64,000 nt of DNA. It comes from Candidatus Omnitrophota bacterium. Lineage in GTDB: Bacteria > Omnitrophota > Omnitrophia > Omnitrophales > Aquincolibacteriaceae. Positions 1-32,706 of the stretch are shown here, in pieces. The position numbers were made by a program, and so were the translations under genes. The stretch spans positions 191,150 to 255,149 of the forward strand of contig JAKJDL010000002.1 of NCBI GenBank assembly GCA_022705945.1, read 5' to 3'. Within the stretch, counting starts at the first letter, position 1, and each line of letters opens with the position of its first letter. A model generated the notes under the pieces. It made no database searches and had not been told where the DNA came from. It worked only from the letters and a program-made list of their open reading frames with translations.

Positions 1-48
1 GAAGACTCGAAACATTCTTCGGGCCGTCCGGGAAAGGAATTTCTCACT

Positions 49-705
49 ATGGGAGCAGAAAAGATCAAAAGACTGGTTTTTCGTTTTTTTTCCCGCCTGC
101 TGATCCTTTTCGGGAAGCTCTGGTTCAGGCTGACGGTCCAGGGTTACGAAAACCTTCCGGTGTGCGGGCCCTGCATTTTAACGGCCAACCATCAAAGCTA
201 CCTCGACATTCTTGCGATCGCGATGCTGCTTGACCGGAAAGAGCTTTTGCACCGGACCTCGTGGGTCATCGGGAAGTCCACTTCCCGGAACCCCTTCCTT
301 CGTCCTCTTTTTCTTGTCTCTCCCTTGATCGTCGTGAACGGAACCGTAAGAAAAGCGGAGGCGGAACTGAAGAAAAACCGCATGCTTGTGATCTTCCCCG
401 AAGGTTTTTACGCTTGGCGCAAATATCTTTTTGAGAGGGGAAAAGAGGCGGCGGAGCCCCGGCGGCAGATCGGAACGAGCGCGGCGATCCTCGGCCTCAA
501 GACAGGATGTGAGATCGTTCCTATCGGAATCCGCGGCACTTATGAAGCCATGCCTCCCTACAGCTTTTTCGCGAAACCGGGAAACCTCTGCCTGCGGATC
601 GGAAAACCGTTCCGCTTTGAAGTTCCCGAGCCGGAGGAAATAATGGACGGGATGATCTCAGAGAAGACAAACCGCGTTATAGCCGAGATCGATGCCCTTC
701 GCTAG
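49..705 (+). CDS. lysophospholipid (1-acyl-sn-glycerol-3-phosphate-type) acyltransferase, PlsC-like
   Basis: HxxxxD motif (NHQSYLD), FPEG block, size about 218 aa; RBS GGAAAGGAA before the ATG. Confidence 0.75.
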   Translation: MGAEKIKRLVFRFFSRLLILFGKLWFRLTVQGYENLPVCGPCILTANHQSYLDILAIAMLLDRKELLHRTSWVIGKSTSRNPFLRPLFLVSPLIVVNGTVRKAEAELKKNRMLVIFPEGFYAWRKYLFERGKEAAEPRRQIGTSAAILGLKTGCEIVPIGIRGTYEAMPPYSFFAKPGNLCLRIGKPFRFEVPEPEEIMDGMISEKTNRVIAEIDALR

Positions 706-828
706 GGATCCGGGCGCTCCCGGTTTCCGGTCTTAAGTTCTCCCGTTGTTCCCATTGTTTATTTCGCGCTTTCCCTCAAAATAAAGCTGATTGGGCCGAT
801 AATCTTTGTCAGGATATAGGAGTGTGCA

Positions 829-2409
829 ATGAGCCATCTGGGAGAGCCTTTTTGCGTTCAGGTAAGCCGGATCCTATCGGTCCAGCCGGGAGATATTTTA
901 CGGCTGATGGGGCAGACCGAGATTTTTTTAAAAGACCTTCCGTTCGTCAAGGAATGCCGCCTCATTAGCAGGGAAGGGTATCGTTCCGTGACTTTCTGGA
1001 GGGTCGAGATCGATCACGTTCCGATATCCTGGAAAGAAGAGTCGATTTTTGATCTCCGGAACGGCACCGTATCTTTCAGGGCTCTTGAGGGAGATCTCCG
1101 GGTGCTCGAGGGAGTCTGGAAACTCACGGAATGCCCGCAGGGAGGAACCGAGGTTTGGATCGAGGCGAAGGTCGAGATCGGCATTCCGGCCGTTTTTGAA
1201 AAGGCCGTCGGAGGGATGATCGTCGAAAAGATCCGGAAATTTTTTGAAACAGTTCTTGATTCGATGGAGGAGAGGATCGGTTTCGAGCGTTACCGGCGAA
1301 AGAATGAAAAATCATCCCGCATTTCCGGGTTCGGGGTAATCGGTCACCCCTACAATTATCAGCATTTTTTGAAAAACCTTCATCTCCTCAAGCTCGATTT
1401 CAAAGCGCCTTCACCCGAATTTTTAACCAAGGTTTTTGATCTGACACCTTCCTACATTTCCTACGGCGTGCAGGAGTTCCGTGACTCGGCCGGAAAAACG
1501 ACCCGCGGGGCTTTTATCGCCTGCAATATCATCCCCGAAATGCTCACGGTCGATATCCGGAAAACCGTGGCCAAGGTGGTGGAATCCTGCAAGGTCGCGG
1601 AACGGCACGGGTTCGGGATCGTCGCACTCGGAGGTTTTACATCGATCGCGGGAGAGAAATACGGCGAAGAATTCCTGAAACAGATACATATTCCCGTGAC
1701 GACCGGGAATACGCTGACGGCCGCGCTCGCGGTCGAGGGAGTCCTCAAAGCGGCGCGTCTCATGGAGACCGATATTTCCAAAGCCAAGGTCGCGGTGATC
1801 GGGGGCGCGGGGGATATCGGGAGCGCTTGCGCCCGCGTCATGGCGTTCTCGGCCAAGGAAGTCACGATCGTGAGCCGCAGTCCGGCAAACCTCAGGAAAA
1901 TGGAAAAAGAGATCAAATCGATCCGGCATGCGAAATTTCACGGCACATCGGACGCGGTGAAAGCGGTTCGGGATGCGGATATCGTGATCGGGGCGGCAAG
2001 CTCCCCCCATTCACTTCTGGAGCTCCGGCATTTCAAAAACGGGGCGATCGTCTGTGACGTCGGATTCCCGAAAAACATTGTCTACGGGGACGTGGACCGC
2101 GGCGATATCCTTGTCTTTGCCGGGGGGATTTGCTCGATCCCCTGTGAATTTCAGACCGGCCTTGAGATCGGACTGCCGTCGACCCGGATGCTTTACGGAT
2201 GTTTTTCCGAAGCGATTGTGCTGGCGCTCGAGGAGCGTTATGAGAATTTTTCGTGGGGGAAAGGCCATATTACCAGGGAGAAGATGGACGAGATCCTGGA
2301 GCTTGCCCAAAAACACGGGTTTTCGCTGGCGCCTTTCTTCTGGTCCGGAGGGATTATCACGGACGACGAGGTTCGCGCGATCGGGACGGGACTCAGGGCC
2401 GGGGTTTGA
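829..2409 (+). CDS. SRPBCC (polyketide cyclase/START-like) N-domain fused to an acyl-ACP reductase (AAR)-family NAD(P)-binding reductase
   Basis: C-terminal 350 aa aligns block-for-block with cyanobacterial AAR (FGVIGH, IPEML, ALGGFTSI, TTGNTLTA, VAVIGGAGDIGSA, DVGFPKN, ENFSWGKGHITREKMDEILELAQKHGF); N-terminal 170 aa has an SRPBCC-like pattern. Confidence 0.8.
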   Translation: MSHLGEPFCVQVSRILSVQPGDILRLMGQTEIFLKDLPFVKECRLISREGYRSVTFWRVEIDHVPISWKEESIFDLRNGTVSFRALEGDLRVLEGVWKLTECPQGGTEVWIEAKVEIGIPAVFEKAVGGMIVEKIRKFFETVLDSMEERIGFERYRRKNEKSSRISGFGVIGHPYNYQHFLKNLHLLKLDFKAPSPEFLTKVFDLTPSYISYGVQEFRDSAGKTTRGAFIACNIIPEMLTVDIRKTVAKVVESCKVAERHGFGIVALGGFTSIAGEKYGEEFLKQIHIPVTTGNTLTAALAVEGVLKAARLMETDISKAKVAVIGGAGDIGSACARVMAFSAKEVTIVSRSPANLRKMEKEIKSIRHAKFHGTSDAVKAVRDADIVIGAASSPHSLLELRHFKNGAIVCDVGFPKNIVYGDVDRGDILVFAGGICSIPCEFQTGLEIGLPSTRMLYGCFSEAIVLALEERYENFSWGKGHITREKMDEILELAQKHGFSLAPFFWSGGIITDDEVRAIGTGLRAGV

Positions 2410-2411
2410 TT

Positions 2412-5072
2412 ATGACGGCGCTGGTCACGGGTGGAACGGGATTTATCGGTTCCGCGCTGGTTCGCCATCTGCTTGCGGCCGGTTACCGCGTCCGGGTGCT
2501 GGTCCGCCAGAAAAAAGACAGCCTACTTCTTGAAAACCTTCCCGTGGAGGTGATCAACGGCGATGTAACGAACGCCCGCGCCGTCGACAAGGCCGTGGAG
2601 GGCTGTTCCGTTGTTTTCAACCTTGCCTCGCTTTATGCCTTCTATCCTTTCTGGATGAAACATCCGAAGGCAATCTACAGGATCAACGTTGACGGTACGG
2701 TCAATATGCTTGAGGCTTCGTTGCGCCACGGCGTAAAAAAATTCATTCACACAAGCACCATTGCCGTCCTTAACCGTCCCGTGGATGGCGGTTCCGTGGA
2801 CGAGAACGCCGGCTTTGATCCGCGTGGTGCGAGCCATTATGCCCGATCGAAATATCAGGCCGAACGGGAAGTCCTTAAGTATTATTCCCGCGGATTGCCG
2901 GCCGTGATCCTGAATCCGGCCGTTGTATTCGGGGAACGCGACCACAAACCGACCCCGTCGGGGGACGTGATCGTGAAATTCCTGAACCGGAGTTATCCCG
3001 GTTATTTTGATACCCTTTGGTCCGTGGCCGATGCCGACGATGTCGCAAAAGCTCATCTTGCGGCCGTGGAGCGGGGAAAGGCGGGCGAGAGGTATATCCT
3101 TGCGAGCGGCGGGCATTACACGCTGAGGGAGATCTTCGGAATACTTGAAAAAATCACCGGGATCAAGGCGCCGCGTCTCCGGATTCCTTACGCAGTTCTT
3201 TTTAGTTTCACTTACCTTGAAGAAGCCGTCGCGTATTTTCTTTTCAGGACCAAGCCGCTTATAGCGACCGAGGGCGTGAAGTTCTGCAAAGCATCCCTTC
3301 CATGTGACGGCTCCAAAGCGATTCGGGATCTCGGATATGCGCCGACGCCGTTTGAGGAAACACTTGCCACGGCCGTCGCCTGGTACCGGAAGAACGGTTA
3401 CGTGGAGCCGAGAGGTTTTTTCCGGATCAGAACCCACGGGTCACGTCTCGTCCGTTTTTTGATGCGCCGGCTGGGTATGGCAGGTTATACGGACAGATTG
3501 AGCCCGGGAACAATCTTTTTTTTCGGCATCGTCAAGCTGCTGAATCTGCTCAAAAAGGCCGGGGCCGGGCGGGGCGAGGACGGTTGGAGGAAGGTGACAC
3601 AGTGTTATCTGAGGACGGAGCAGGCCAAATTTATCCTGACGGTCTTCAATCTGGATTTTCGCTCGGATCTGAAAACAAAAAACGAAATGACCTGCGACGA
3701 TGCCAAACGGCATTTTATTCGGAGATTCGCAAAGTTTCTGAAAACCCAGCCGCTTTTTTGTCAAAAGCTCGAATGGCACAGGTTCTGCGCGAAGTCGGGG
3801 CCGCAGCCTTTTGCGGATATCGTTCAGGCCGAGTTTGACGCCTCCGGAAATCTTCTGCGCTTTGAACCCCGGTTCGATCCGGATGACGAACGAGGGAGGT
3901 TCGAAGCTATGCCGACCGAGCTCAAAGAGCTGCTTTTTGAGGGTCTGCGTCAGGTTTACAACGCTACCCTCGAACTTCCGGATAAAAAACGGCCGCTTCG
4001 TCTCAAAGCGGAGTGGCACCGATGGCTCTCGAAACATTCCGGCTGTTTTTCTGGCGAATGGTTCAAGCGCGCGAAAGAATTGGGCGAGCGTGTGATGAGC
4101 GCCGCATTCATACGTTTTGAGACGCTGCCGGCCGGGCTTTCCGCCCGGGGTTCCGGACGTTTCCGGGTTCCCTGGTTCATCCGTTCCAAACATCCCGGCT
4201 ACGGTCCGCTCACCATCGTGTGCCGCCTGACGCCGGACCTTGAAGCGGCAGACATCTGGATTCAGTTTAGCCATGTGCCTGTTGACGGGGTCCCGGCCCA
4301 GGAAGTGCTGAACAAAATAAAAAAGGAATGGGGGACGAAGGGTGATCTTCCGTTTCCGGCTTCCGGATACCGGCAGGATATGACCCCGGAGGTGTGTTCT
4401 TCCGGCCGTACCGCTGACGGGACCGTGCATGTCTATCAATGTCTTGATTTCCAGCCTTTTCTTCAAGTGAGGAATCAGCTGAACAAACGTTTTGGAGGCC
4501 GCGCGAAGCAGGTGATCTCCTCGGCGGCGCTCCTGATCTGGAAGCTCTCCCAATACCGCGAATTTGAGGACATCAAGTTCGCGGTGCCGGTGGATCTGCG
4601 TGCGGCGGGGGGAAGGGAGCGGACACTCGGTTTTATCTTCATCCGTCCGGCTGTCTATTTTGACAAACAACGCGCCGACCGCGGATTTTTTTCATTCCAA
4701 CAGGAATTTAATCGCCAGCTCTTTTCGGCCCGTAAGCGGCGCGGCGAGAGCTACCGCCTTCTTGAAATTTACACGGCGGCCCCGCACGCCCTTTATGCCG
4801 TGACCGCAAAATTCCTTATGAGGCCTCTCCAGGATTTTGTCGGCTCGCTCGGGATCACGATTATCAAGAAGGCCGATTTTTTTGTGGCGCCGGCAAGCGA
4901 TGTTCATACGGACGGTTTTATCGCGTTCAGCAATTTTACGCTTCCTTCCGAGGACGGCGGGAAAGTAGGCGTCGTTAGCATGAAGGGGCCGAGGGAAAAG
5001 GTTGAAAAATACATGAATGTTCTTCATGATGTCATGCACAGGGCGATCCGGCGCGATGAACTCTATTTTTGA
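2412..5072 (+). CDS. bifunctional protein: N-terminal NAD-dependent epimerase/dehydratase (extended SDR, 3beta-HSD-like) reductase + about 500 aa C-terminal domain with an HxxxDG acyltransferase-like motif
   Basis: TGGTGFIGS Rossmann motif and YxxxK (YARSK) in the first 340 aa. C-terminal region contains IWIQFSHVPVDGVP, which resembles the catalytic HHxxxDG of WS/DGAT, PapA5 and condensation-domain enzymes. ATG at 2412 is 2 nt after the upstream stop; the track start at 2253 lies inside the upstream gene. Confidence 0.65.
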   Translation: MTALVTGGTGFIGSALVRHLLAAGYRVRVLVRQKKDSLLLENLPVEVINGDVTNARAVDKAVEGCSVVFNLASLYAFYPFWMKHPKAIYRINVDGTVNMLEASLRHGVKKFIHTSTIAVLNRPVDGGSVDENAGFDPRGASHYARSKYQAEREVLKYYSRGLPAVILNPAVVFGERDHKPTPSGDVIVKFLNRSYPGYFDTLWSVADADDVAKAHLAAVERGKAGERYILASGGHYTLREIFGILEKITGIKAPRLRIPYAVLFSFTYLEEAVAYFLFRTKPLIATEGVKFCKASLPCDGSKAIRDLGYAPTPFEETLATAVAWYRKNGYVEPRGFFRIRTHGSRLVRFLMRRLGMAGYTDRLSPGTIFFFGIVKLLNLLKKAGAGRGEDGWRKVTQCYLRTEQAKFILTVFNLDFRSDLKTKNEMTCDDAKRHFIRRFAKFLKTQPLFCQKLEWHRFCAKSGPQPFADIVQAEFDASGNLLRFEPRFDPDDERGRFEAMPTELKELLFEGLRQVYNATLELPDKKRPLRLKAEWHRWLSKHSGCFSGEWFKRAKELGERVMSAAFIRFETLPAGLSARGSGRFRVPWFIRSKHPGYGPLTIVCRLTPDLEAADIWIQFSHVPVDGVPAQEVLNKIKKEWGTKGDLPFPASGYRQDMTPEVCSSGRTADGTVHVYQCLDFQPFLQVRNQLNKRFGGRAKQVISSAALLIWKLSQYREFEDIKFAVPVDLRAAGGRERTLGFIFIRPAVYFDKQRADRGFFSFQQEFNRQLFSARKRRGESYRLLEIYTAAPHALYAVTAKFLMRPLQDFVGSLGITIIKKADFFVAPASDVHTDGFIAFSNFTLPSEDGGKVGVVSMKGPREKVEKYMNVLHDVMHRAIRRDELYF

Positions 5073-7284
5073 TCCGAATCAGTATTACTGGAACGTGTAT
5101 GCGCTCCCGCATTTCATTGTCGGGGTGCTTATCATACTTGAGGGTCTGTTCGTGTTCCTTCAGGGTAAACGGACCGTCACACACGTTGCCTACGCGATCA
5201 CGAATTGGACGGCGGGTATCTGGCTTACCGGGGTCGGGATCGTCTGTTCAATGACGGATGAGACGGCGGCGGTCATTGTTTCGCGCTGGTACACCTGGTT
5301 CGGGATCATTTTTATCACGCCCGCCGTTTATTTTTTTATCGCATCGTGGGACCCCGGATTCCTCAGGCGCAAGGCGAAATGGGTCGTGATTCACTATTTT
5401 TGCGCACTTGGCTTTTATCTCGCCTGCGGCCTCACGCCCTGGATCGTTGCGACGGTGTATCCGTATTCGACCGGTTTTTTCCCGAAGGCCGGCCCTCTGG
5501 AAGGGGTGTTCATCGTTTGGTTCTATGCGCTCATGATTCTTTCGTTCGCCAATTTCATGCGGATTTGCCGGAAGGCCGATACCCCTATCCTCAAGAAGAA
5601 TACAAAGCTTATGTTTGTTGCCTATGCGATTGCCTTCCTCGGCTCCATCGAATACCTGCCCAATTACGGAATCCATATTTTCCCGGTTGCGTTCCTGCCG
5701 ATGTTTGTTTTCACGACAATCATCGGCTACTGCGTGATCCGCTACCGCCTCATGGATATCGAGACCGTGATCCACAAAACGGTCATGTGGTTTGTGACGA
5801 GCGCCGTGGCCGTGCTTCCCTTTGCCGGGATCATCTCTTCGGTTCAGCCGATGATGAGGGATTTGAAGCCTGCGGCCGCGGGATTTTATTTCCTGGCGAT
5901 GCTTTTCATTTTCTATTTTTATTACCGCGCCGTGCAGCCGCGTCTCGACCGCCTCTTCCAGTGGCGGCAGACGAACCTGATGGCCGTTCTCGACGGGTTT
6001 TTGAGTGAGCTGGTCCACCTCAAGAATATCCGCGATCTCCTTCAGAGCTTCTCGCGTCTGATGCGCCGTGAGCTTTTTGTGAGGCGGCTTTCGGTTTATC
6101 TTTATGATGAGCAGTCGAAACACTTTGTCCCCGCCATCGCGAAAGGGATCCGCAGTCTCCGTCCCGTGCCCCAGGGAAGCCGATTGCTTCAGTGGCTTGC
6201 GGAGACCGACGGAGCCGTGATCGGTGAGCTTGCCGTGAGCGATCCTGCGGTCGACGAGTTCCGTTCCGAAATGGAAAACTTTTTTTCTGATACGGGCACC
6301 CTGGCCGTATTGCCCTTTGTGCTGGGCGACCGCCTGATCGGCTTTGCGAACCTCGGGAGGAAAAGTAACCTGCGCCGCTACGGTTTCAACGAGATCCGGT
6401 TCCTGAACCGCCTCAAGGTGCCCGTCACGATCGCTCTTTCAAATTCGATGCGGTATGAGGATATCCGCAAGCTTTCCGACGAACTCCAGCTCTGGAACCA
6501 GGCTCTCGAGGAGCGCGTCGACCAGAGGACGCGCGAGCTCGCGAAGACGCAGGAACAGCTCGTGCAGGCCGAAAAGCTCGCGACGCTCGGAACGCTCGCG
6601 GGCGGAGTCGCGCACGAGATCAATAACCCCCTCACGGCGGTACTCACAAACGCGCAGATCCTCCGTATGAGCGCACGGGAGGACGATATCGAATCGATCT
6701 CCCTGATTGAGGAAGGTGCGAAACGATGCCAGGGGATCGTACACAAGCTCATGAAATACGCCCGGAAAACCACTGAGGAAGCGCCTTTGAAAGCGATTGA
6801 TCTTGGCGAGGTTGTGAAGGGAACGGTGGCTCTTCTGGGTTTTCAATTCAAACAGGAAAATATTGAGGTCAAAACGAGGCTTGCGAAGACCCCGCCCGTC
6901 CGGGGAATCGCGGGGGAGATTGAGCAGGTCCTCACGAACCTTCTTGTGAACGCGAAAGACGCGATCCTCGCGGTCCGTCTCCCCGCATCTGCGGGGAATA
7001 CGGCACCCGGGCAGGGAAAGATCATCATAGAAACCCGCAAAGCTCCGGATGCGGTCGAGCTGATAGTGACTGACGACGGCGCGGGTATCCCTAAAGAAAA
7101 TCTTAAAAAGATATTCGATCCTTTCTTTACGACCAGGGATGTCGGCGCAGGCACCGGGCTCGGCCTTTCGGTCAGCCTCGGTATCCTAAAGCGCCACGGC
7201 GCCGCGATTTCGGTCGTGAGCGAGCCCGGCCGCGGCTCCGCCTTTACCATCCGGTTTCCCGATCAAGATCCTGTCTCAAAATGA
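5017..7284 (+). CDS. sensor histidine kinase (N-terminal 7TM sensor, GAF-like, HisKA, HATPase_c)
   Basis: 7 predicted TM helices, HEINNPLT H-box, N/G1/G2 boxes (DDGAGIP, GTGLGLS). Start is ambiguous (5017 or 5056) and overlaps the upstream stop. Confidence 0.85.
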   Translation: MFFMMSCTGRSGAMNSIFDPNQYYWNVYALPHFIVGVLIILEGLFVFLQGKRTVTHVAYAITNWTAGIWLTGVGIVCSMTDETAAVIVSRWYTWFGIIFITPAVYFFIASWDPGFLRRKAKWVVIHYFCALGFYLACGLTPWIVATVYPYSTGFFPKAGPLEGVFIVWFYALMILSFANFMRICRKADTPILKKNTKLMFVAYAIAFLGSIEYLPNYGIHIFPVAFLPMFVFTTIIGYCVIRYRLMDIETVIHKTVMWFVTSAVAVLPFAGIISSVQPMMRDLKPAAAGFYFLAMLFIFYFYYRAVQPRLDRLFQWRQTNLMAVLDGFLSELVHLKNIRDLLQSFSRLMRRELFVRRLSVYLYDEQSKHFVPAIAKGIRSLRPVPQGSRLLQWLAETDGAVIGELAVSDPAVDEFRSEMENFFSDTGTLAVLPFVLGDRLIGFANLGRKSNLRRYGFNEIRFLNRLKVPVTIALSNSMRYEDIRKLSDELQLWNQALEERVDQRTRELAKTQEQLVQAEKLATLGTLAGGVAHEINNPLTAVLTNAQILRMSAREDDIESISLIEEGAKRCQGIVHKLMKYARKTTEEAPLKAIDLGEVVKGTVALLGFQFKQENIEVKTRLAKTPPVRGIAGEIEQVLTNLLVNAKDAILAVRLPASAGNTAPGQGKIIIETRKAPDAVELIVTDDGAGIPKENLKKIFDPFFTTRDVGAGTGLGLSVSLGILKRHGAAISVVSEPGRGSAFTIRFPDQDPVSK

Positions 7285-7742
7285 TCCCGGAAACCGGGTC
7301 ATGGAAGTATGAAATAGCGTCAGGCTCTGAAAGGGCCGTAATCCATGAAACCGTATGGTTTTTCCGCCCCTCGTTTTGGTTTTTGTAGTTTTTTTCTGGG
7401 GCTCCTAATTTGGTTAAAACGAGATGACCTTATTGGAAAAACATTTTTTATTTTTACGGTTTTTATTGGTGGGCGGGGAGTGCTTTTCGGCTTTGATTTA
7501 TTTGTGCCTATATTAATAAAAGAGATAAATGCTTGTGAAACCGCCTCTCGTCTTGTCGCGGGTAAAGCTGGGCTATGGGGGAAACTCGAAAAGCGATCCG
7601 GATACAGTTATCTGGGGTTTTGTACCCGGCCCTTCAACTCAGCGCCCCCAAATCAGCTTAACCCGTTGATCGGATTACAGTTAAATTTCTAAATACCGAT
7701 ATAAGTAGAGGGGAAGGGTGTGTTCAACGCGAGGATTTCAAT

Positions 7743-8279
7743 ATGAAAAAAATACTGGTAATAGATGATGATGTTCTTGTCCTGAGGGCGATCAGCAAGT
7801 TGCTTACGATGAACAATTACAACGTGACAGAAGCTAAATCCGGCGAGGAGGCGGCGGGAATATTAAGTAGTGCCGATTTTGATTTAATAGTGTCCGACAT
7901 TAGGATGGCGGGGATGGACGGGATTCAGCTTGTTGAACGTTTGAGGAGTTCCGGCAAGAACACGCCGGTGATTTTCGTGACGGGGTATGCGAGCGAAAAT
8001 GCGCCGGTGGAAGCTTATCGGCTTGAGGTTAAGGACTATGTGTTGAAACCCTTTGATAAGGATGATTTGCTTCGCAAAGTCGAAAAGAATCTGGCTCTTC
8101 GGGAAGCGGAATTTGCAAAAAAGGGTGATTTGTGTCGAACCGTGCGTGGCTTGGTGAGAGATTTTGAAAAAAACAATAGCATGAATATTTACGAAAATGA
8201 AAACCTGAAGAAGTTTATCAGCGAACTCAACGCTGCGCTTTTTGCAGAGGAAAAAGAGCAGGCAAAAAAGTATGAATAA
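7743..8279 (+). CDS. response regulator, stand-alone receiver domain with C-terminal coiled-coil tail
   Basis: KILVIDDD..., D at the phospho-site (LIVSDIRM), conserved T/K (FVTGY, LKPF); no DNA-binding output domain. Confidence 0.85.
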   Translation: MKKILVIDDDVLVLRAISKLLTMNNYNVTEAKSGEEAAGILSSADFDLIVSDIRMAGMDGIQLVERLRSSGKNTPVIFVTGYASENAPVEAYRLEVKDYVLKPFDKDDLLRKVEKNLALREAEFAKKGDLCRTVRGLVRDFEKNNSMNIYENENLKKFISELNAALFAEEKEQAKKYE

Positions 8280-9186
8280 TAGAAAGTTGGGATTTTTTTT
8301 GAGCGTTCTTCGGAAAGAGGCGAATTATTTTTGGGAGCGGCTGGTAGTTTTTTCAATTCGGGTAAGATATCGCTATTGGCGGCGTTTATTATGCCGAGTT
8401 GTTGGCAATGCGACATCTCTTGCGGCTCTGTATTACCGTGTTTTTAGACGCCTAAGATTTCGCACAATTCGGTTGTTTGTGTTTTTTGTTTGGAAATTGT
8501 GGCTGGATAAGGTTGAGGGGTTTGAGAATATTTCCTGGAATGAATCTGCGGTTATCGTTTCAAATCATCTCAGTTACTATGATTTCTTTGTTTTGGCGTC
8601 TGTTCTTGAGCGTCAAACCGTATTCATTGCTACCAAAGGGCTAAATGACAGATCGTTTGTGGGATGGTTTATGAAACTGGACACGATTGTTTATGTTGAT
8701 CGCGAAAAGCCGGGTTACGGTTTTTTTAAGGAAATGGTCAGGCAGACGAAGATGAAAAAAAATGTTGTCATCTATCCTGAAGGAACGAGGTCCCGAAGCG
8801 GAAAGATGTTGGCCCCCAAACCGGGATTTATCAAATTGGCGCTTCTTTGCGGAGTGCCCGTCATCCCTCTGGCGATGCGGGGTACTTATGAAATTCTTCC
8901 GCCGCATGAGCATGTTCCCAAGATGAAAAAGTGCAGCATTCATATAGGCGAGAAGCTTTATATTTCACCTTCCAATCCGCTTTTTCGGGATGTTTTTTAC
9001 CGTTGCGCGAAGGATGGCAAGTATACGAATCTGACAGACGAAGGGATCGAAGAAATTGCATTCCGGATTATGAACCGGATCAGGTTAATGTCCGGGCAGG
9101 AGTGGGATGAAAGCGCTCTCCCCAAGGCCAGATTATACGGTCTTGCGGATGCTTCGCCGAGGGCGGTCGAGTTTTGTTGCCAATGA
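8272..9186 (+). CDS. PlsC-like lysophospholipid acyltransferase (second copy)
   Basis: NHLSYYD (HxxxxD) and PEGTRSRSG blocks; ATG at 8272 chosen (the track TTG at 8242 overlaps the RR stop). Confidence 0.8.
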   Translation: MNNRKLGFFLSVLRKEANYFWERLVVFSIRVRYRYWRRLLCRVVGNATSLAALYYRVFRRLRFRTIRLFVFFVWKLWLDKVEGFENISWNESAVIVSNHLSYYDFFVLASVLERQTVFIATKGLNDRSFVGWFMKLDTIVYVDREKPGYGFFKEMVRQTKMKKNVVIYPEGTRSRSGKMLAPKPGFIKLALLCGVPVIPLAMRGTYEILPPHEHVPKMKKCSIHIGEKLYISPSNPLFRDVFYRCAKDGKYTNLTDEGIEEIAFRIMNRIRLMSGQEWDESALPKARLYGLADASPRAVEFCCQ

Positions 9187-9836
9187 AAAAGGCGGCCTTT
9201 TTTGATGTCGATGGCACGCTGGTTGCATGCCAGTCGCAAAAAAAATTTTCCGATTTTTTATTTTCAGAAAAGATACTCGGAGTTTTCCACATTCTTGTAA
9301 TCTCCTGTTGGTTTGCGGGATATCGGCTTGGACTGTTAAGAAGCAGCATTGGCATGAGAAGAGTTTTTTATCGGTTCCTTTCTTTTGATTCGGCCGAGCG
9401 CGTAAACAATCTGATGATAAAGGCATATCAGGATCTTATCCGTCCGGCATTAAACCTGTTCCTGAAAGAGCGTATTTTGGGTCTGAAAAAGCAAGGCTAT
9501 TTGATTGTTCTGCTTTCAGGGACCCTTCAGCAGTTTTGCAACCTGATTGCGGATGAGTTTGGTGCGGATCAAGCTTTCGGGACGAGGCTGATCGTAGAAG
9601 ACGGACATTTCAGAGGGAAATGGGAGGGAGACATTTTAGAAGGAGAGGCAAAGGCCAGGTTTGTGAAGAAATATTCCAAGGCGAATGACATCAGTTTGGA
9701 ACAGAGCATCGCTTATAGTGATAGTTCGGCGGACTTGCCTCTTTTGGAGATTTGCGGTTCTTCCGTTGCGGTCAATCCTGACCCGGCTCTTAAAACAATC
9801 GCTCAATCGCGCTCCTGGGAAATTTTGAATGGCTAA
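9183..9836 (+). CDS. HAD-superfamily hydrolase, subfamily IB (phosphoserine-phosphatase-like)
   Basis: FFDVDGTLV motif I, S/T motif II (LLSGT), K and DSSAD motif III/IV; ATGA overlap with the upstream acyltransferase stop. Confidence 0.75.
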   Translation: MKKAAFFDVDGTLVACQSQKKFSDFLFSEKILGVFHILVISCWFAGYRLGLLRSSIGMRRVFYRFLSFDSAERVNNLMIKAYQDLIRPALNLFLKERILGLKKQGYLIVLLSGTLQQFCNLIADEFGADQAFGTRLIVEDGHFRGKWEGDILEGEAKARFVKKYSKANDISLEQSIAYSDSSADLPLLEICGSSVAVNPDPALKTIAQSRSWEILNG

Positions 9837-12141
9837 TCTTCTGGAACAATACCTGTTGGCGTCGGTACTTACGGCAATCCTGACATTTTTTTTGGCCGTT
9901 CTTGTCAGCTGGAAGAACTACAGGCGGAAGTTGAACATCCTGTATTCGTTTTGGGCGTGCACAGTTGCCCTGTGGAGTCTGATGCTGGTTTTCAACGTGC
10001 TGGCTAAAGACCACGGCACGGCTTTACTATGTGTACGGCTGCTTCATTTCTGGGCGATCCTCCTGCCTGCGGTATATGTTCATTTTGTCTTGCTCTTTCT
10101 CTGCAAGGACGCGGCATTCAACGCGCTTATTAAGGGGACGTATGCCTTTTCGTTTTTACTGATTGCGCTGAATTTCTCACCCTGGTTTTTGTCTGTCGAA
10201 TATCGGGAGAAATTTCGTTTTTTTGCGGCGAAACCCCTCGCTTTTTACCCCATACATATAGCGATGTTCATTGCCTGTGTATGCTTCGCGATCATACAGC
10301 TTTATCTCAGCTGGCGAAAAGCCGAGGGCAGTTTCAAACGGCAGATCTGGTACTTTTTGCTGGCAACCTTAATTGGATATTCGGGCGGGATCACGAATTA
10401 TCTGATTAATTACAACATCCTTATCTATCCTCTTTATCCGTTTGGAAACTTCACAATTTGCGCTTATGTCATTGTGATCGGTTTCGGTATTCTCAAGTAT
10501 CAACTGATGGATATTTCCGTCATCATCAAGCGGACGGTGGTTTTTACTGGGCTGTTCGGTATTTTAATGGCTGTGGTGGGGATAGTTACGACGCTTGCTC
10601 ACAACTATTTGGGACAATTTATCGGGATCGGGCAGACAACACGTCAGATACTGAGCATCCTCATCGCGATGCTGCTGGCTGACCCGATCAGGAAGCTTCT
10701 GGTCAATCTCACGGACAGGTTCCTGTTCCAGAAAAAATATAATTATCACAAGCTCCTGAAAGACGCTTCGCGGGGGATGTCGAACATCGAATCCCTCGAG
10801 CACCTGCTCGGCCTTGTGGTCCATTTCGTGACGATGAAAATGCGCGTGAAGAACGCGTCGGTGCTGATGCGCGACATCCATTCGAGCGATTTCAATCTCG
10901 TTTACCAGCGCGGTTACGACAAAAAATTCCTTTCACTGACCCTGAATGACGAGGATCCGCTGATTGACTATATCGGGCATCATAAGGAGGCGGTCGATAT
11001 CGAGAGGATCAAGGAGAAGATCGAGGCGGCGCGCTACGGACGCAAGGATAAAAAAGAGGCCGATCATTGGGACTATGAGGCGATCCGGGACAGGATGATC
11101 TACCTGCAGGCGACCTGCTGCGTGCCGAGCTTCCTGGGTCGCGAGCTCAAGAACATCCTGATGCTTGGAGAAAAAAAATCGGGCGAACATTACTCTACTG
11201 AGGACCTGAACCTTCTTTACACACTCGCGCAGGAATCCGCTATCGCGATCGAGAACGCGCGGCTCTATGACGAGGCAAAGCGCCGCTCGCTTGATCTCGA
11301 ACAGATCAACGATCAACTTGAGCGTTCACGGGGCCTTTTAGAGCGCGCGCTAAACGAGGCCGAAGGTGCCAATAAACAGCTCCAGGACGCGCAGGCCCAG
11401 CTCATCCACGAGCAGAAGATGGCGACCCTGGGACGTCTGGCGGCTTCGGTCGGTCATGAGGTCAATAACCCGCTCACGATCCTTTCGATGAACGTGTCTC
11501 GCGCGATACTCAAATACCGCAAAGATCCGGATCTCAAGGTCTCCGAGATCATGGATGTGTTCGACAAGATGGAGAAAAATATCGAGCGCATCAAGGCGGT
11601 CGTGAATACCCTCACGGGGCTTCTCAAAAAGTCGGAGAAAGGGAAGTTTGAACCGCTTTCGCTCAAGCTGATCCTGGAAGAGACGCTTCCGCTCGTTCAG
11701 TTTCAGACCTATCTCGATAATCTTTCCGGGACGGAAGTGGATTTCAATGTGCCTGGCAATATCCCGCTCATCCGCGGCGACCTGGAGCGTTTGCAGGAAG
11801 TTTTCCTTAATATGTTCATCAACGCCTATCACGCGATGGCGGGCAAGCGTCACCGGAAGATCGCGGTGCGAGCCGAGATTGATCAGGAAAATCAGGGGAT
11901 GGTCGCGATCCATTTTACCGATAACGGCTGCGGGATGACGGAAGAGGTCCGGAAGAAAATTTTCAATTACGGGTTCACGACGAAGCCCTCCGGCAAAGGG
12001 TCCGGCCTCGGGCTTTACATGTGCAAATATATTATCGAGCTGCACGGCGGCACGGTTTTGGTGAAGTCGCGTCTCGGCGAAGGGACGACGTTTACGCTTA
12101 CGCTTCCGGTGTATGGGGAAGACTTTAAAATCAGCTCATAG
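9829..12141 (+). CDS. sensor histidine kinase, paralog of 5017..7284 (7TM sensor, GAF-like, HisKA, HATPase_c)
   Basis: Same architecture and shared blocks (YQLMDISVIIKRTV vs YRLMDIETVIHKTV; HEVNNPLT). Start overlaps the HAD stop by 8 nt. Confidence 0.85.
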   Translation: MANLLEQYLLASVLTAILTFFLAVLVSWKNYRRKLNILYSFWACTVALWSLMLVFNVLAKDHGTALLCVRLLHFWAILLPAVYVHFVLLFLCKDAAFNALIKGTYAFSFLLIALNFSPWFLSVEYREKFRFFAAKPLAFYPIHIAMFIACVCFAIIQLYLSWRKAEGSFKRQIWYFLLATLIGYSGGITNYLINYNILIYPLYPFGNFTICAYVIVIGFGILKYQLMDISVIIKRTVVFTGLFGILMAVVGIVTTLAHNYLGQFIGIGQTTRQILSILIAMLLADPIRKLLVNLTDRFLFQKKYNYHKLLKDASRGMSNIESLEHLLGLVVHFVTMKMRVKNASVLMRDIHSSDFNLVYQRGYDKKFLSLTLNDEDPLIDYIGHHKEAVDIERIKEKIEAARYGRKDKKEADHWDYEAIRDRMIYLQATCCVPSFLGRELKNILMLGEKKSGEHYSTEDLNLLYTLAQESAIAIENARLYDEAKRRSLDLEQINDQLERSRGLLERALNEAEGANKQLQDAQAQLIHEQKMATLGRLAASVGHEVNNPLTILSMNVSRAILKYRKDPDLKVSEIMDVFDKMEKNIERIKAVVNTLTGLLKKSEKGKFEPLSLKLILEETLPLVQFQTYLDNLSGTEVDFNVPGNIPLIRGDLERLQEVFLNMFINAYHAMAGKRHRKIAVRAEIDQENQGMVAIHFTDNGCGMTEEVRKKIFNYGFTTKPSGKGSGLGLYMCKYIIELHGGTVLVKSRLGEGTTFTLTLPVYGEDFKISS

Positions 12142-14433: not shown

Positions 14434-16782
14434 ATGTTCCGAAAAATCGCCGAATTTATCGATCACTTCCGCTGGCCCGTATTGCTCGCGATGATCGTGA
14501 GTCTTTTCATAATGGGCAACGCGGCCATGCGCCTCAAGGTCGATCCCTCCATCGAGCCCCTCTTCATCAAAAAATCCGAGGAATACAAGTATTACCAGGC
14601 TTACCGCGAGAAATACGGCTCCGACCAGATGATCGCCGTCGCGATGGCCACCGATGATCTTTTTACGGACGAGAACTTCAGGATCCTCAAGAATGTCACA
14701 AAAGGCATCCAGAGCTTCGACCGGGTCGAGCGCGTGATCAGCCTCGCGAACGCCCAGGATATCCGCCACAAATTCCTCGGCGTGAAGACCGAGCTTGCCT
14801 TCAAGGAGGTCGAGGAGGGCGATAAAAGTGTTGCGCAAATGAAAAAGCGCATCCTCGCCAACGAGCTTTACGTGAGCAATATCGTTTCCAAGGACGGAAG
14901 GATAGGGAATATCGTCGTCTATCTGAAAACCGACGGTGATCCTTCCGCAAACGGCGTTTTCATCCAAGACCTCAAAAAATACCTGGAGGATTTTGAAAGG
15001 CCGGGGCTCAAGTTTTACATGGCCGGCGCGCCGGTCGAACAGTATGAGTTTATTCATCTGATCCACCGCGACCAGATGGTCTTTATCCCGACGATCACGG
15101 TGATCCTGATCCTTGTGACTTTTTTGATCTACCGGAGCTTCGCGTGCATGTTCCTCTCCATGTCGATCGTGTTCACGACGCTCGTCTGGACCATGGGGAC
15201 GATCGCGCTCCTCGGCCAGGAGTTGAACCTTATGACTTCGCTCCTCGCGCCCGTGATCATGATCGTCGCGGTGCTGAATGCGACCTACCTGATCAACCTG
15301 TTTTTCGAGATCCGCCCGCATCATGCCAGCCTCAAGGAGTGTGTGCTGTTGACGATCCAGCAGCTCGGGCTTCCGTGTTTCCTCACGCATTTTACGGCGG
15401 TGCTCGGATTTTCGTCGCTCGCCCTGAGCCCGATCCCCGCGATCCAGAGCTTCGGTCTCTACGCCGCGCTCGGGACATTTTACGCTTATATCATCGAGAT
15501 CGTGCTGACGGTGCTTCTACTCCCGATCCTTCCTTACCGACCGAAAAAGATAGACGCTTTCGATGAAAGCCATTTTTTCAACCGGGTTCTGATCGGGTTC
15601 CTCGAGAACCTGGAAGCCCGCTGGCGCTGGCTGATCCTGCTGGTGACGGGTGCCGTTCTCGTTTTATCGATCTTCGGCATCCGGAAGATCGAAGTCGACA
15701 CGAATATCGTCAAGCAGATGAAGCCCAGTCTGCCGCTCGCGATCGCGACCCGTTTTATCGATGAGAACCTCACCGGAGTTTATTCGCTTGGATTCGTGAT
15801 GCGCCGCAAGGACGGCGAGACGATGGTAGATCCGGCCACGCTCAGGCGTCTTGATGAGTTCAAGACCTATCTTGAAGGCGAGCCGGGGATCGCCAAGGTG
15901 AACTCGATCACGACCCTTGTGAAAAAGATCAATGAGGCCCGGGCGGGGGACGACGATAAATACGAGATCCCGGGGAAGCCGGAACTCCTGAAGCTTTATT
16001 TCAAGGGGATGGTGAAATCGGGGGATCCCGAGCTTTGGAAGATGATCTCCGAAGATCTCAAAGAGGTCCGGATCGAGGCCCGGATGAAGGCTATCGGCAC
16101 GACGCAGGGGGCGGCCCTGGAAGACAGGATCCGGGAGTATCTGGACACGAACATGAGCCGTTATTTTGAATACAAGCTGACGGGGAACGTGGTCCTGCTC
16201 GGAAAGATTTCAAAAGCGCTTGTTCACGAGCAGTCGCAGAGATTCGGGTTTGCCTTTGCTTCCATCCTGACCGTGATCGTTCTTATCTTCCGCTCCCTGC
16301 GCCTGGGAATGCTTGCCGCGATCCCGAATCTTCTTCCGATCCTCGCGGTCTACGGGTTCATGGGCTACGTGGGGATCGAACTTTCAACGGCGACGGCGAT
16401 GATCGCTTCAATCGTGCTCGGGCTTGTGGTGGACGCGTCGATCCAGTTCATCTACCGTTTCGAAAAAGAGTTCCAGCACCGTTTCCACTACCTGCAATCC
16501 CTCCACCACACCTACCGGAACGTCGGTCAGTCGATGGTGCTTTCGGCGCTGATCCTCTGCCTGGGGTTTGCGTCGAGTGTTTTCGCTAGCTTCAGGATCA
16601 CGGTCCATTTCGGGGTTCTGACAAGCCTCACGATTTTTCTCGCGCTCCTCTGCTCGCTTCTTGTTATGCCGGTGTTTCTCGTGATGATCAAGCCCTTCGG
16701 GCCCCAGCGGCTTTTTAAGAGAAAGCTCAAGGGGGGGGATTCGTTCCACGGCCAGCGGCCCGGCCCGCCTGATGGTATATAA
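14434..16782 (+). CDS. MMPL/RND-superfamily exporter (HpnN-like, sterol-sensing-domain type)
   Basis: 782 aa with two 6-TM bundles, each preceded by a large periplasmic loop; MMPL-like topology and motifs. Confidence 0.85.
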   Translation: MFRKIAEFIDHFRWPVLLAMIVSLFIMGNAAMRLKVDPSIEPLFIKKSEEYKYYQAYREKYGSDQMIAVAMATDDLFTDENFRILKNVTKGIQSFDRVERVISLANAQDIRHKFLGVKTELAFKEVEEGDKSVAQMKKRILANELYVSNIVSKDGRIGNIVVYLKTDGDPSANGVFIQDLKKYLEDFERPGLKFYMAGAPVEQYEFIHLIHRDQMVFIPTITVILILVTFLIYRSFACMFLSMSIVFTTLVWTMGTIALLGQELNLMTSLLAPVIMIVAVLNATYLINLFFEIRPHHASLKECVLLTIQQLGLPCFLTHFTAVLGFSSLALSPIPAIQSFGLYAALGTFYAYIIEIVLTVLLLPILPYRPKKIDAFDESHFFNRVLIGFLENLEARWRWLILLVTGAVLVLSIFGIRKIEVDTNIVKQMKPSLPLAIATRFIDENLTGVYSLGFVMRRKDGETMVDPATLRRLDEFKTYLEGEPGIAKVNSITTLVKKINEARAGDDDKYEIPGKPELLKLYFKGMVKSGDPELWKMISEDLKEVRIEARMKAIGTTQGAALEDRIREYLDTNMSRYFEYKLTGNVVLLGKISKALVHEQSQRFGFAFASILTVIVLIFRSLRLGMLAAIPNLLPILAVYGFMGYVGIELSTATAMIASIVLGLVVDASIQFIYRFEKEFQHRFHYLQSLHHTYRNVGQSMVLSALILCLGFASSVFASFRITVHFGVLTSLTIFLALLCSLLVMPVFLVMIKPFGPQRLFKRKLKGGDSFHGQRPGPPDGI

Positions 16783-31749: not shown

Positions 31750-32706
31750 TTGCAAAAAATCATCAAGCTCCACTCGAATGCCGAAGCGGCCGCGCTTTAC
31801 GGGAATCTGGATCAGAATATCCGGCAGGCGGAAAAGGATTACAGGGTCCGCCTGATAGCGAAAAATGACCGTTTAAAGATATCAGGCGATAAAAAGGACG
31901 TTGAAAATGCTTATGACCATTTCATGAGGCTTCTTGAGGCGAATCGCAAGGGGGGACGGGGTTCTGACCGGCGCGTGTCCGACGATCCCGTGATAAAGGA
32001 AGCCAAAACGGAGACACCCGCGAAAGGCGTGATTCATTTTTTTCACAGAGGCAAAGTGGTTCAGGCGAAAAGCGAGAATCAGCTCGCGTACCTGCGTGCG
32101 ATCCAGTCCAAGGACATCGTGATCTCGATCGGCCCCGCCGGTACCGGGAAGACCTATTTAGCGATGGCGGCCGCGGTCGAGGCCCTGAAGAAGAAATATG
32201 TGGGCCGAATCATCCTGACGCGTCCCGCGGTTGAAGCGGGTGAAAGTCTCGGGTTTCTTCCGGGGGATCTTGCGGCCAAGGTGAATCCTTATCTGAGGCC
32301 CTTGTATGACGCGCTCTATGATATGCTCGAATATGAGGAAGTTGCCCGCTACACCGAACGCGGTGCGATTGAGATTGCTCCGATTGCCTATATGCGCGGA
32401 CGCACCCTAAATGATTCTTTCGTGATCCTTGATGAAGCCCAGAACTGCACGCATAATCAGATGAAGATGTTCCTGACGCGTATGGGACAGACCTCCAAGG
32501 TTGTGATCACCGGGGATATCACGCAGGTCGATCTTCCGGCCGGAAAGAAGTCGGGACTGATCGAGATCCGGCAGATACTTTCGGACATTCCGGATATCCA
32601 GTTCATTTATCTGAACGAGACCGATGTGGTTCGTCATCCTCTGGTGCAGCAGATCATCAAAGCTTATGAAAAACATGAACGCCGGAAAACGCATGCCGAG
32701 TCCTGA
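31750..32706 (+). CDS. phoH: PhoH-like ATPase
   Basis: Walker [20 protein letters not shown]; conserved phoH-yqfF-ybeY context. Confidence 0.9.

Follow-up and report, generated by a model that had tools for sequence, protein, structure and literature searches.

The DNA analyzed here is a 64,000-nucleotide stretch of contig JAKJDL010000002.1 from a Candidatus Omnitrophota bacterium (the window, taken at its full length), and its subject is the open reading frame (ORF) 829..2409, which encodes a single protein with an N-terminal SRPBCC domain and a C-terminal reductase domain of the type found in cyanobacterial acyl-ACP reductase (AAR; ACP stands for acyl carrier protein) as well as in Serratia PigE. 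An earlier note, made from the sequence alone, had proposed that an AAR-like reductase is preceded by an SRPBCC domain within one ORF, and the structural model, the profile matches and the conservation among homologues all agree with it. The two domains are fused in one phylum and coupled in operons in others, which argues that they work together. The gene most constantly found beside the pair encodes a multi-pass membrane histidine kinase.

The SRPBCC and reductase domains are encoded as one protein

The ORF opens with an ATG, has exactly the boundaries that the earlier note had assigned to it, and contains the following features.

829..2409, plus strand: SRPBCC-AAR-like fusion ORF, 526 aa (stop codon counted in)
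850..1326, plus strand: SRPBCC (helix-grip) domain, residues ~8-150, with a conserved linker helix to residue ~166 (alignment, AlphaFold2, Foldseek and PDB profile)
1327..2406, plus strand: AAR/PigE-type NAD(P)H thioester reductase domain, residues 167-526 (matches to TIGR04058, PigE and PDB 6JZQ/4PPM)
1801..1821, plus strand: dinucleotide-binding loop GGAGDIG, G325-G331, paired with 162-GATGDIG-168 of Synechococcus elongatus AAR (SeAAR)
2200..2202, plus strand: Cys458, paired with the catalytic Cys294 of SeAAR and invariant in a 39-sequence family alignment

A Shine-Dalgarno-like AGGAG sits 6 nt 5' of the ATG at 829. Residues 8-26 of the protein (strand 1 and helix 1) are conserved over 114 homologues, with R25 kept in 97%, which supports the start at this codon. 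Alignments by tblastn begin at residues 1-10 in 79 of 80 other genomes and at residue 25 in the remaining one. The identical 526-aa protein is present in three independent assemblies (two NCBI assemblies of metagenome-assembled genomes (MAGs) and one Logan assembly); its NCBI record carries the name of a 'Candidatus Omnitrophica bacterium ADurb.Bin...' MAG, in which 'ADurb' hints at an anaerobic digester as the source.

An annotation or assembly artefact, or a downstream start that would yield a plain AAR-like protein of ~360 aa, could be argued from the in-frame Met codons at residues 27, 130 and 146 and from the sub-threshold Pfam scores of the N-terminal domain described below. This explanation is extremely improbable given the recurrence of the same ORF in independent assemblies, the clear purifying selection on the N-terminal 166 residues (across the 114 homologues and 80 other genomes), the Shine-Dalgarno-like element and the confident AlphaFold2 model of the N-domain (pLDDT, the predicted local distance difference test, 87.6). 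A true start downstream of the N-domain, an outcome that the earlier note had raised against its own reading, is contradicted by the AGGAG, the N-terminal conservation, the tblastn alignment starts and the three assemblies. The fusion is not an artefact, and both domains are translated as one protein.

The N-terminal domain is a divergent member of an SRPBCC subfamily

AlphaFold2 models were made of residues 1-166 and of the 555-aa domain of a neighboring gene product, each separately. The model of residues 1-166 (from a 115-sequence alignment) has a pLDDT of 87.6 and a predicted TM (template modeling) score, pTM, of 0.80, and its elements run beta-alpha-alpha-beta6-long helix, the helix-grip topology (E-H-H-E6-H). 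Foldseek aligns it with PDB 2D4R, the START/SRPBCC protein TTHA0849 (TM 0.81/0.92, root-mean-square deviation 1.3 Å, E 3e-12, 26% identity). The same entry was recovered in PDB searches, where the E value was 1.6e-6 for the single sequence and 5.6e-18 for the family profile. The next Foldseek matches are the aromatase/cyclases (ARO/CYC) TcmN, ZhuI and WhiE, thebaine synthase, norcoclaurine synthase, Bet v 1/PR-10 proteins and PYL receptors; there are 333 PDB matches at E<=1e-3, and the 50 best are all SRPBCC-type. The concern that the N-terminal 170 aa might not form an SRPBCC fold is thereby answered by the model and its superposition on 2D4R, and the boundary prediction and modeling that the earlier note had called for place the SRPBCC domain at residues ~8-150 and the reductase from residue ~167, with a helix-grip model for the former.

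By Pfam, the N-domain of the window protein scores 19.2 bits against Polyketide_cyc2 (PF10604, gathering threshold 27.4) and 18.9 bits against Polyketide_cyc (PF03364, gathering threshold 23.4), and the N-domains of relatives pass the thresholds at 42-67 bits (PF03364 included). One reason for the low score is that the window protein is a divergent family member: residue 21 (889..891) is Gly, against Trp in 94% of the family, and the protein departs from the consensus at several positions nearby.

Ten positions are invariant in 115 sequences (W57, W68, F83, G88, D89, G95, W97, G118, P120 and Y155), and the subfamily is marked by the motifs W-x10-W, F-x4-GD-x5-G-x-W and G-I-P. The aromatic residues W57, W68, F83 and W97 fall at alternate strand positions, a pattern that is only suggestive of a cavity for a hydrophobic ligand. 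The domain joins the AAR fold at about residue 2 of that fold through a conserved helix that holds the invariant Y155. Over 83 related loci, mean identity to the window protein is 37% in the SRPBCC domain and 55% in the reductase; by this measure the SRPBCC domain evolves faster than the reductase yet is clearly under selection.

The C-terminal domain is a homologue of AAR and PigE

Residues 168-499 match the acyl-ACP reductase model TIGR04058 at E 9e-49 and 166.6 bits, below the equivalog cutoff of 449.7 bits, and residues 168-518 match the N-terminal reductase of PigE (NF053554) at E 5e-50. PDB searches recover Synechococcus AAR (6JZQ/6JZU) at E 1.7e-36 and PigE (4PPM) at E 1.3e-29 with the single sequence, and at 7.5e-54 and 3.5e-41, respectively, with the family profile. 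Judged by these alignments, homology extends across the full AAR fold, the domain belongs to the AAR/PigE-type superfamily in the broad sense, and the window protein is equally close to the reductase domain of PigE and to AAR.

In SeAAR, C294 is the acyl-enzyme nucleophile and GATGDIG is the dinucleotide recognition loop, of the form GX(1-3)GX(1-2)G (Gao et al., PMC7089970), and the reductase domain of PigE reduces a thioester to an aldehyde, as established experimentally (PMC8341465). From the conserved residues, the window protein would likewise be expected to turn a thioester into an aldehyde by way of an acyl-Cys intermediate.

The cyanobacterial enzyme docks to an aldehyde-deformylating oxygenase (ADO), and the SeAAR mutants R73A, R79A and K80A lose ADO binding (PMC7089970). 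Two of these three positions are replaced in the window protein (R73 by I243 and R79 by A248), and K80 is kept as K249. No ADO-type protein was found in the precomputed Pfam annotation of the locus or among the ~30 window ORFs scanned, which make up part of the 64 kb. Together with a score of 166.6 bits against a cutoff of 449.7, these observations indicate that the window protein and cyanobacterial AAR are homologues but not orthologues. The name 'AAR homolog' used in the earlier note therefore stands as regards homology, the catalytic Cys and the NADPH loop, and does not extend to orthology.

The family profile also matches PDB 9E4X/9E4S ('amino acid adenylation domain protein') over residues 238-452 at E 2e-9; an AAR-like reductase fold may thus already have been solved in a nonribosomal peptide synthetase context. 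The tambjamine protein TabE, described as a 'novel acyl-ACP reductase', was considered as a relative and set aside: it is an aldehyde dehydrogenase-type enzyme with no kinship to the AAR-like family.

The same two parts occur as adjacent genes

Six unfused AAR-like homologues were examined for their neighbors (loci L087, L090, L091, L093, L094 and L095), of which five are informative, L095 starting at a contig end. A standalone SRPBCC gene (147-169 aa) lies just upstream of the unfused AAR-like gene in four of the five.

L087, Desulfobacterales MAG JAXHNP010000006.1: SRPBCC gene, an intervening GMC (glucose-methanol-choline) flavoprotein gene, then the unfused reductase
L090: standalone SRPBCC and reductase genes, which overlap
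L091: SRPBCC gene just upstream of the unfused reductase, with genes for a thiamine diphosphate (ThDP) enzyme, a kinase and a FadL/Toluene_X protein
L093: SRPBCC gene just upstream of the unfused reductase, with a class-III aminotransferase gene adjoining the reductase

In the fifth, L094, a short-chain dehydrogenase/reductase (SDR) gene takes the place of the SRPBCC gene upstream of the reductase. The standalone Desulfobacterales SRPBCC protein aligns with the fused domain at an hhalign probability of 99.5% (E 1e-22), as a member of the same subfamily, and keeps the W...W, F-x4-GD-x5-G-x-W and GIP motifs; R25 is not kept. Its locus (1..12113) reads, in order, RND pump, SBF transporter, LGT fragment, SRPBCC, GMC/ferredoxin-like flavoprotein, AAR-like reductase, acyl-AMP ligase (FAAL), carrier protein and radical SAM enzyme, a biosynthetic-looking operon without a kinase. 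This pairing of fused and split forms is the strongest new support for the view that the SRPBCC domain serves the reductase.

The fusion is widespread in Omnitrophota

In a word-indexed search, upward of 120 clusters matched at 46-77% identity; nearly all are 520-535 aa long and have both domain types, and every cluster whose source names an organism comes from Omnitrophota/Omnitrophica. When one genome of each GTDB species was scanned, 131 relatives came up; the top 80 of these all align over residues ~10-518, spanning both domains, and nearly all are MAGs or single-amplified genomes of Omnitrophota. Other AAR homologs with the same fusion, for which the earlier note had proposed to search, are therefore abundant.

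Searched exhaustively with HMMER, 1.84 billion representatives yielded 1,681 matches at E<=1e-10. Among the matches listed, the groups are close fusions, many unfused AAR-like proteins (340-390 aa, 33-44% identity), distant fusions (496-575 aa, 26-34% identity) and longer architectures. The last read, by Pfam, as PilZ+SRPBCC+reductase, helix-turn-helix (HTH)+PilZ+SRPBCC+reductase, or reductase+GAF: the metagenomic relatives P0189, P0198, P0203 and P0301 and the protein of locus L088 carry an N-terminal PilZ domain (a cyclic di-GMP (c-di-GMP) receptor), HTH and PilZ, or a C-terminal GAF domain.

A membrane histidine kinase is the most constant neighbor

5017..7284, plus strand: multi-pass (HisKA_7TM-type) histidine kinase (Pfam HisKA and HATPase_c; orthologues match PF16927)

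This protein has at least six hydrophobic, putatively transmembrane, peaks in residues 30-301. The kinase gene is located downstream of the fusion gene on the same strand in all 68 informative loci, within 400 nt in 46 and after inserted tailoring genes in 22; in the other 15 of the 83 loci the sequence continues for less than 2.3 kb downstream, and these were left out of this count. The orthologues in the 46 loci are 30-77% identical to the window kinase over its full length, including the membrane part. The association extends to more distant relatives: a kinase gene adjoins and overlaps the PilZ-fused relative of L088 (30% identity), the distant fusion of locus L092 is followed by a kinase and then a REC-cyclase, and the split locus L091 also has a kinase. 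The invariant neighbor is thus the kinase, which is far more constant than any biosynthetic gene. In the literature searched, HisKA_7TM appears in census and review mentions only, and nothing relevant was found on histidine kinases of Omnitrophota.

The gene downstream of the pair varies between loci

Neighborhoods were surveyed by tblastn with the window proteins and the proteins of two related loci against the 83 related loci. In the window, the position between the fusion gene and the kinase is occupied by a gene for an 886-aa protein of two parts.

2412..3404, plus strand: extended-SDR (HpnA/3-beta-HSD-like) domain of the 886-aa protein (Pfam Epimerase E 3.5e-40; TIGR03466 at 327 bits, below its cutoff of 367.65)
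3405..5072, plus strand: C-terminal 555-aa acyltransferase-fold domain of the 886-aa protein (no Pfam match; HxxxDG motif; AlphaFold2 and Foldseek)

The HxxxDG motif reads HVPVDG (4272..4289), and its H290, D294 and G295 are invariant in 58 sequences. The AlphaFold2 model of the 555-aa domain (pLDDT 89.5, pTM 0.91) has a two-lobe fold resembling those of CAT, carnitine acyltransferases, BAHD enzymes and WS/DGAT. Foldseek matches it to choline and carnitine acyltransferases, HCT (BAHD), the WS/DGAT structure 6CHJ and TRI101 with a probability of 1.00 and E values from 3e-10 to 1e-7, at TM scores of only 0.35-0.5, as two-lobe folds that differ in the angle between the lobes would be expected to give. 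A sequence search of the domain against the PDB gave only a chance match (E 1.1). Three arrangements occur among the 59 members detected: fusion to an SDR (Omnitrophota), fusion to an alpha/beta hydrolase (Victivallales/Lentisphaeria) and a standalone form. From its model, the domain would represent an undescribed acyltransferase-fold family.

The SDR::acyltransferase gene is present in only 10 of the 83 comparison loci, with SDR-only matches in five more, several of these cut by contig ends. The earlier note had suggested that the ligand could be handed to the downstream reductase; that partner is not conserved, and in the window it is an SDR fused to the 555-aa domain. The slot is vacant in 46 of the 83 loci, where under 400 nt separate the fusion gene from the kinase. 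Elsewhere it holds a class-III aminotransferase (L005, L039 and L038, followed by a GNAT protein in L005 and L039, with the L038 contig cut), a GMC flavoprotein of ~430 aa that has a Cys-rich, ferredoxin-like insert (L059, L061, L062, L066, L068, L071 and L079; 40% identical to the GMC protein of the Desulfobacterales operon), a B12-radical SAM enzyme (L070), or an SDR alone or with a formyltransferase-like protein (L076 and L072). In the split locus L091 the slot contains the ThDP enzyme. SDRs, transaminases, GMC oxidoreductases and ThDP enzymes are known to be able to act on aldehydes or alcohols, and the common denominator of these enzyme classes supports a free aldehyde as the shared intermediate.

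In one Omnitrophota MAG (L040, 8778..9730), the insert between the fusion gene and the kinase is a toxin-antitoxin-looking pair of small genes, one nucleotidyltransferase-like and one HEPN-like.

Proposed role of the SRPBCC domain and its alternatives

Read most economically, the SRPBCC domain would hold a lipid or hand it on. Acyl-ACP or acyl-CoA, as the fatty acyl thioester, would be loaded onto Cys458, and NAD(P)H would release a fatty aldehyde; we infer this substrate and this product from the homology set out above. On leaving the acyl tunnel, the aldehyde, which is reactive and dissolves poorly, would be taken up by the SRPBCC pocket, which would stand in for the ADO of the cyanobacterial system and pass the aldehyde on to whichever tailoring enzyme is encoded next in the genome. 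In the window, as far as folds and one motif can tell, the aldehyde would pass to an alcohol (through the SDR) and then to an ester (through the HxxxDG acyltransferase). The cassette is apparently co-transcribed with the kinase gene, and the kinase would either detect the lipid made or regulate the pathway. That the reductase makes a fatty aldehyde, and that the SRPBCC pocket replaces ADO as its acceptor and acts as a carrier rather than an enzyme in holding or handing over the hydrophobic product, is a proposal to which we give about an even chance.

The position of the fusion supports this aldehyde-acceptor role. In SeAAR, it is in the N-terminal domain that the acyl tunnel has its distal mouth (M21, Y23 and Y26), which faces the docked ADO, and this domain also contains the docking helix (PMC7089970); in the window protein, the SRPBCC domain precedes the AAR fold and is attached to its N-terminus. 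The replacement of ADO-docking residues and the lack of an ADO among the ORFs scanned further support the SRPBCC domain as an ADO substitute.

Several observations weigh against it. Alignment with SeAAR fails over the first ~45 residues of the AAR fold, where SeAAR has its tunnel exit: HMMER local alignments begin at chain residues 47-49, none of M21, Y23 and Y26 maps onto the window protein, and the geometry of a hand-off is accordingly not mappable. The window's N-domain falls below both Pfam gathering thresholds and lacks the near-invariant W21 (G21). The invariant D89 and Y155 and the near-invariant R25 and D75 would suit a catalytic or regulatory SRPBCC domain as well. With no tailoring gene between reductase and kinase in 46 of the 83 loci, a downstream hand-off is not the general function, and the PilZ and GAF fusions among relatives embed the enzyme in signaling, which fits a sensory N-domain equally well. 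The even weighting given to the carrier proposal reflects the unaligned first ~45 residues, models of separate domains only, and the more than half of loci without a downstream enzyme.

The SRPBCC domain might instead be an allosteric lipid sensor in the manner of PYR/PYL receptors, binding a membrane lipid or an end-product and switching the reductase. A 7TM histidine kinase is always adjacent, relatives add PilZ, HTH or GAF domains to the same polypeptide, the N-terminus is where regulatory modules that bind small molecules are usually placed, and the 46 loci with an empty slot have no downstream enzyme to receive a product, all of which would suit such a sensor. Yet the PilZ-fused relatives keep the SRPBCC domain between PilZ and reductase, so that it is not simply interchangeable with a sensor domain; where split, it is a small protein translationally coupled to the reductase, as is usual for subunits of one enzyme; and it is also present in the kinase-less, biosynthetic-looking Desulfobacterales operon with its FAAL, ACP, GMC and radical SAM genes. 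On balance we consider a sensor unlikely. A further possibility is that the domain acts on the substrate side, feeding an ACP-tethered chain to Cys458 in an ARO/CYC-like manner, or is itself catalytic, transforming the aldehyde, for example by a condensation like that of norcoclaurine synthase. Enzymes are among its structural neighbors (TcmN, ZhuI and WhiE ARO/CYC, thebaine synthase and norcoclaurine synthase), the polar residues D89, Y155, R25, D75 and T107 are invariant or nearly so among the aromatics, and an acyl-AMP ligase and a carrier protein are encoded in the Desulfobacterales operon itself. Against this, the nearest structure (2D4R) is that of an uncharacterized START-type protein and not of an enzyme, R25 is absent from the standalone Desulfobacterales homologue, and the variety of tailoring enzymes argues that free aldehyde, and not an already altered product, leaves the SRPBCC-reductase pair; we regard this possibility as decidedly unlikely.

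At the level of the whole locus, the SRPBCC-reductase pair, the variable slot and the kinase could form a lipid-signal cassette, in which an aldehyde-derived signal is sensed in the membrane by the 7TM kinase. Lineage-specific tailoring would give an ester, amide, alcohol/acid or acyloin 'dialect' of the signal, and the output would run through receiver-only, cyclase-fused or lipid-enzyme-fused response regulators and, in the PilZ-fused variants, c-di-GMP. This idea is speculative, and we think it improbable as it stands. A eukaryote-like ether-lipid route (GNPAT-like PlsC, reductase, SDR) would be a further, tentative idea, but no AGPS-type enzyme is present in the annotated neighborhoods; the GMC flavoprotein of some loci belongs to what we take to be a different family from the AGPS type.

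Comparison with known systems

The window protein shares with cyanobacterial AAR (S. elongatus Orf1594; 6JZQ/6JZU) the three-part fold over ~330 residues, the Cys, the NADPH loop and K80. Unlike AAR, it carries an additional 166-aa N-terminal SRPBCC domain and has a genomic link to a histidine kinase, and unlike the oxygenic phototrophs that host AAR, its source is an uncultured bacterium, presumably anaerobic and of digester-metagenome origin.

The resemblance to Serratia PigE (4PPM; NF053554) is of another kind, in that the reductase alignment to PigE includes the N-terminal ~45 residues. PigE also offers a precedent for fusing or coupling a reductase of this fold to a partner that consumes the aldehyde, a class-III aminotransferase, and an aminotransferase of this class adjoins the reductase in the Omnitrophota loci L005, L038 and L039 and in the unfused L093. 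Whereas the partner in PigE is C-terminal and a catalytic pyridoxal phosphate domain, that in the window protein is N-terminal and a small ligand-binding fold; PigE, unlike the window protein, belongs to a pigment (prodigiosin) cluster and acts on a 3-acetyloctanoyl thioester.

Within the SRPBCC/START/Bet v 1 group, the closest member is TTHA0849 of Thermus thermophilus (2D4R), which shares the helix-grip fold and for which we know of no ligand. Unlike other SRPBCC proteins, the window domain is covalently joined, or operon-coupled in its relatives, to a thioester reductase, and forms its own subfamily. Coq10-type members of PF03364 (the Coq10/RatA family) are lipid (quinone) chaperones, and chaperoning of this type is the kind of role proposed here for the SRPBCC domain.

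Membrane-kinase-linked lipid-signal systems include RpfF/RpfC, which uses the diffusible signal factor DSF, and CqsA/CqsS and LqsA/LqsS, which use alpha-hydroxyketones. By analogy with these, the locus encodes a fatty acyl thioester enzyme, whose product would be a small hydrophobic molecule, beside a polytopic membrane histidine kinase, and the ThDP enzyme of L091 could in principle make an acyloin or alpha-hydroxyketone from an aldehyde. Between the Rpf, Cqs and Lqs systems and the present one there is no homology of the enzymes or of the sensor domains.

Other genes of the locus

49..705, plus strand: PlsC-type acyltransferase, 218 aa (Pfam PF01553, E 6e-16; HX4D motif H48-QSYL-D53 intact)
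7743..8279, plus strand: receiver-only response regulator, 178 aa (Pfam Response_reg, E 2.6e-31)

Genes are closely packed around the fusion ORF. The PlsC-type gene ends 123 nt upstream of it, and a PlsC homologue is found no more than 250 nt upstream of the fusion gene in 31 of the 83 related loci. The ATG of the 886-aa SDR protein, at 2412, is 2 nt past the fusion-ORF stop, and the start of the kinase gene (5017/5056) overlaps the 3' end (..5072) of the SDR::acyltransferase gene. A promoter and terminator scan of 1..8400 gave counts no higher than the shuffled expectation. In many Omnitrophota, two ~200-aa proteins without a firm Pfam match (U1 and U2) precede the cassette, upstream of the position held by the first gene of the window (L002 1593..3039 and L004 4864..6348 are examples); U2 has a signal peptide and a weak jelly-roll (CBM_11/CIA30) similarity and, at 65-85% identity, is more conserved than the reductase.

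The response regulator at 7743..8279 is a possible cognate partner of the kinase at 5017..7284. It opens a plus-strand run (7743..12141) with a second PlsC-type acyltransferase, a HAD phosphatase and a second HisKA_7TM kinase, in which starts and stops overlap, and which forms a second lipid-enzyme and two-component block adjoining the first. In the Omnitrophota MAG DAONFQ010000008.1 (L004), from 17556 onward, a receiver domain is fused to a beta-ketoacyl synthase (Response_reg + ketoacyl-synt), suggesting direct phospho-control of a fatty-acid enzyme. Transporters for hydrophobic compounds recur nearby, with RND/MMPL proteins in L004, L006, L087 and the window (14434..16782, plus strand, an MMPL/sterol-sensing-domain RND transporter) and FadL/Toluene_X in L091. 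The window further encodes, on the plus strand, a REC-PAS-GGDEF-EAL protein (19525..21696) and a 7TM receptor with an HD hydrolase domain (32624..34912), and the region as a whole is rich in lipid-transport and second-messenger genes.

Significance

The architecture is already visible in public automatic annotation, where such proteins are named 'SRPBCC family protein' or '(predicted) amino acid dehydrogenase/RatA'. The literature searched holds no paper on an acyl-ACP reductase with an SRPBCC domain or on acyl-ACP reductase in Omnitrophota. The SRPBCC-reductase pair in fused and split form, the variable aldehyde-tailoring slot, the strict pairing with a kinase and the neighboring HxxxDG family all appear to be unreported, and together they point to an uncharacterized, signal-linked fatty-aldehyde pathway in Omnitrophota.

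AAR is a bottleneck of engineered alkane and fatty-alcohol production, and the hand-over of the aldehyde to its partner is thought to govern efficiency (PMC7089970). A reductase with its own lipid-pocket protein would be a testable answer to the question of how an insoluble, toxic aldehyde is handled by non-cyanobacterial relatives of AAR, and the SRPBCC-reductase protein is a compact part to try in enzyme engineering.

For Omnitrophota, the fusion marks a phylum-wide lipid pathway that would be wired to two-component and c-di-GMP signaling; we know of no described lipids from this phylum. The strict pairing with a 7TM kinase provides a concrete candidate ligand class for the orphan sensor family HisKA_7TM. 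If the locus does act as a lipid-signal cassette, it would represent a new class of acyl-thioester-derived signaling or membrane-homeostasis circuit, centred on the uncultivated Omnitrophota.

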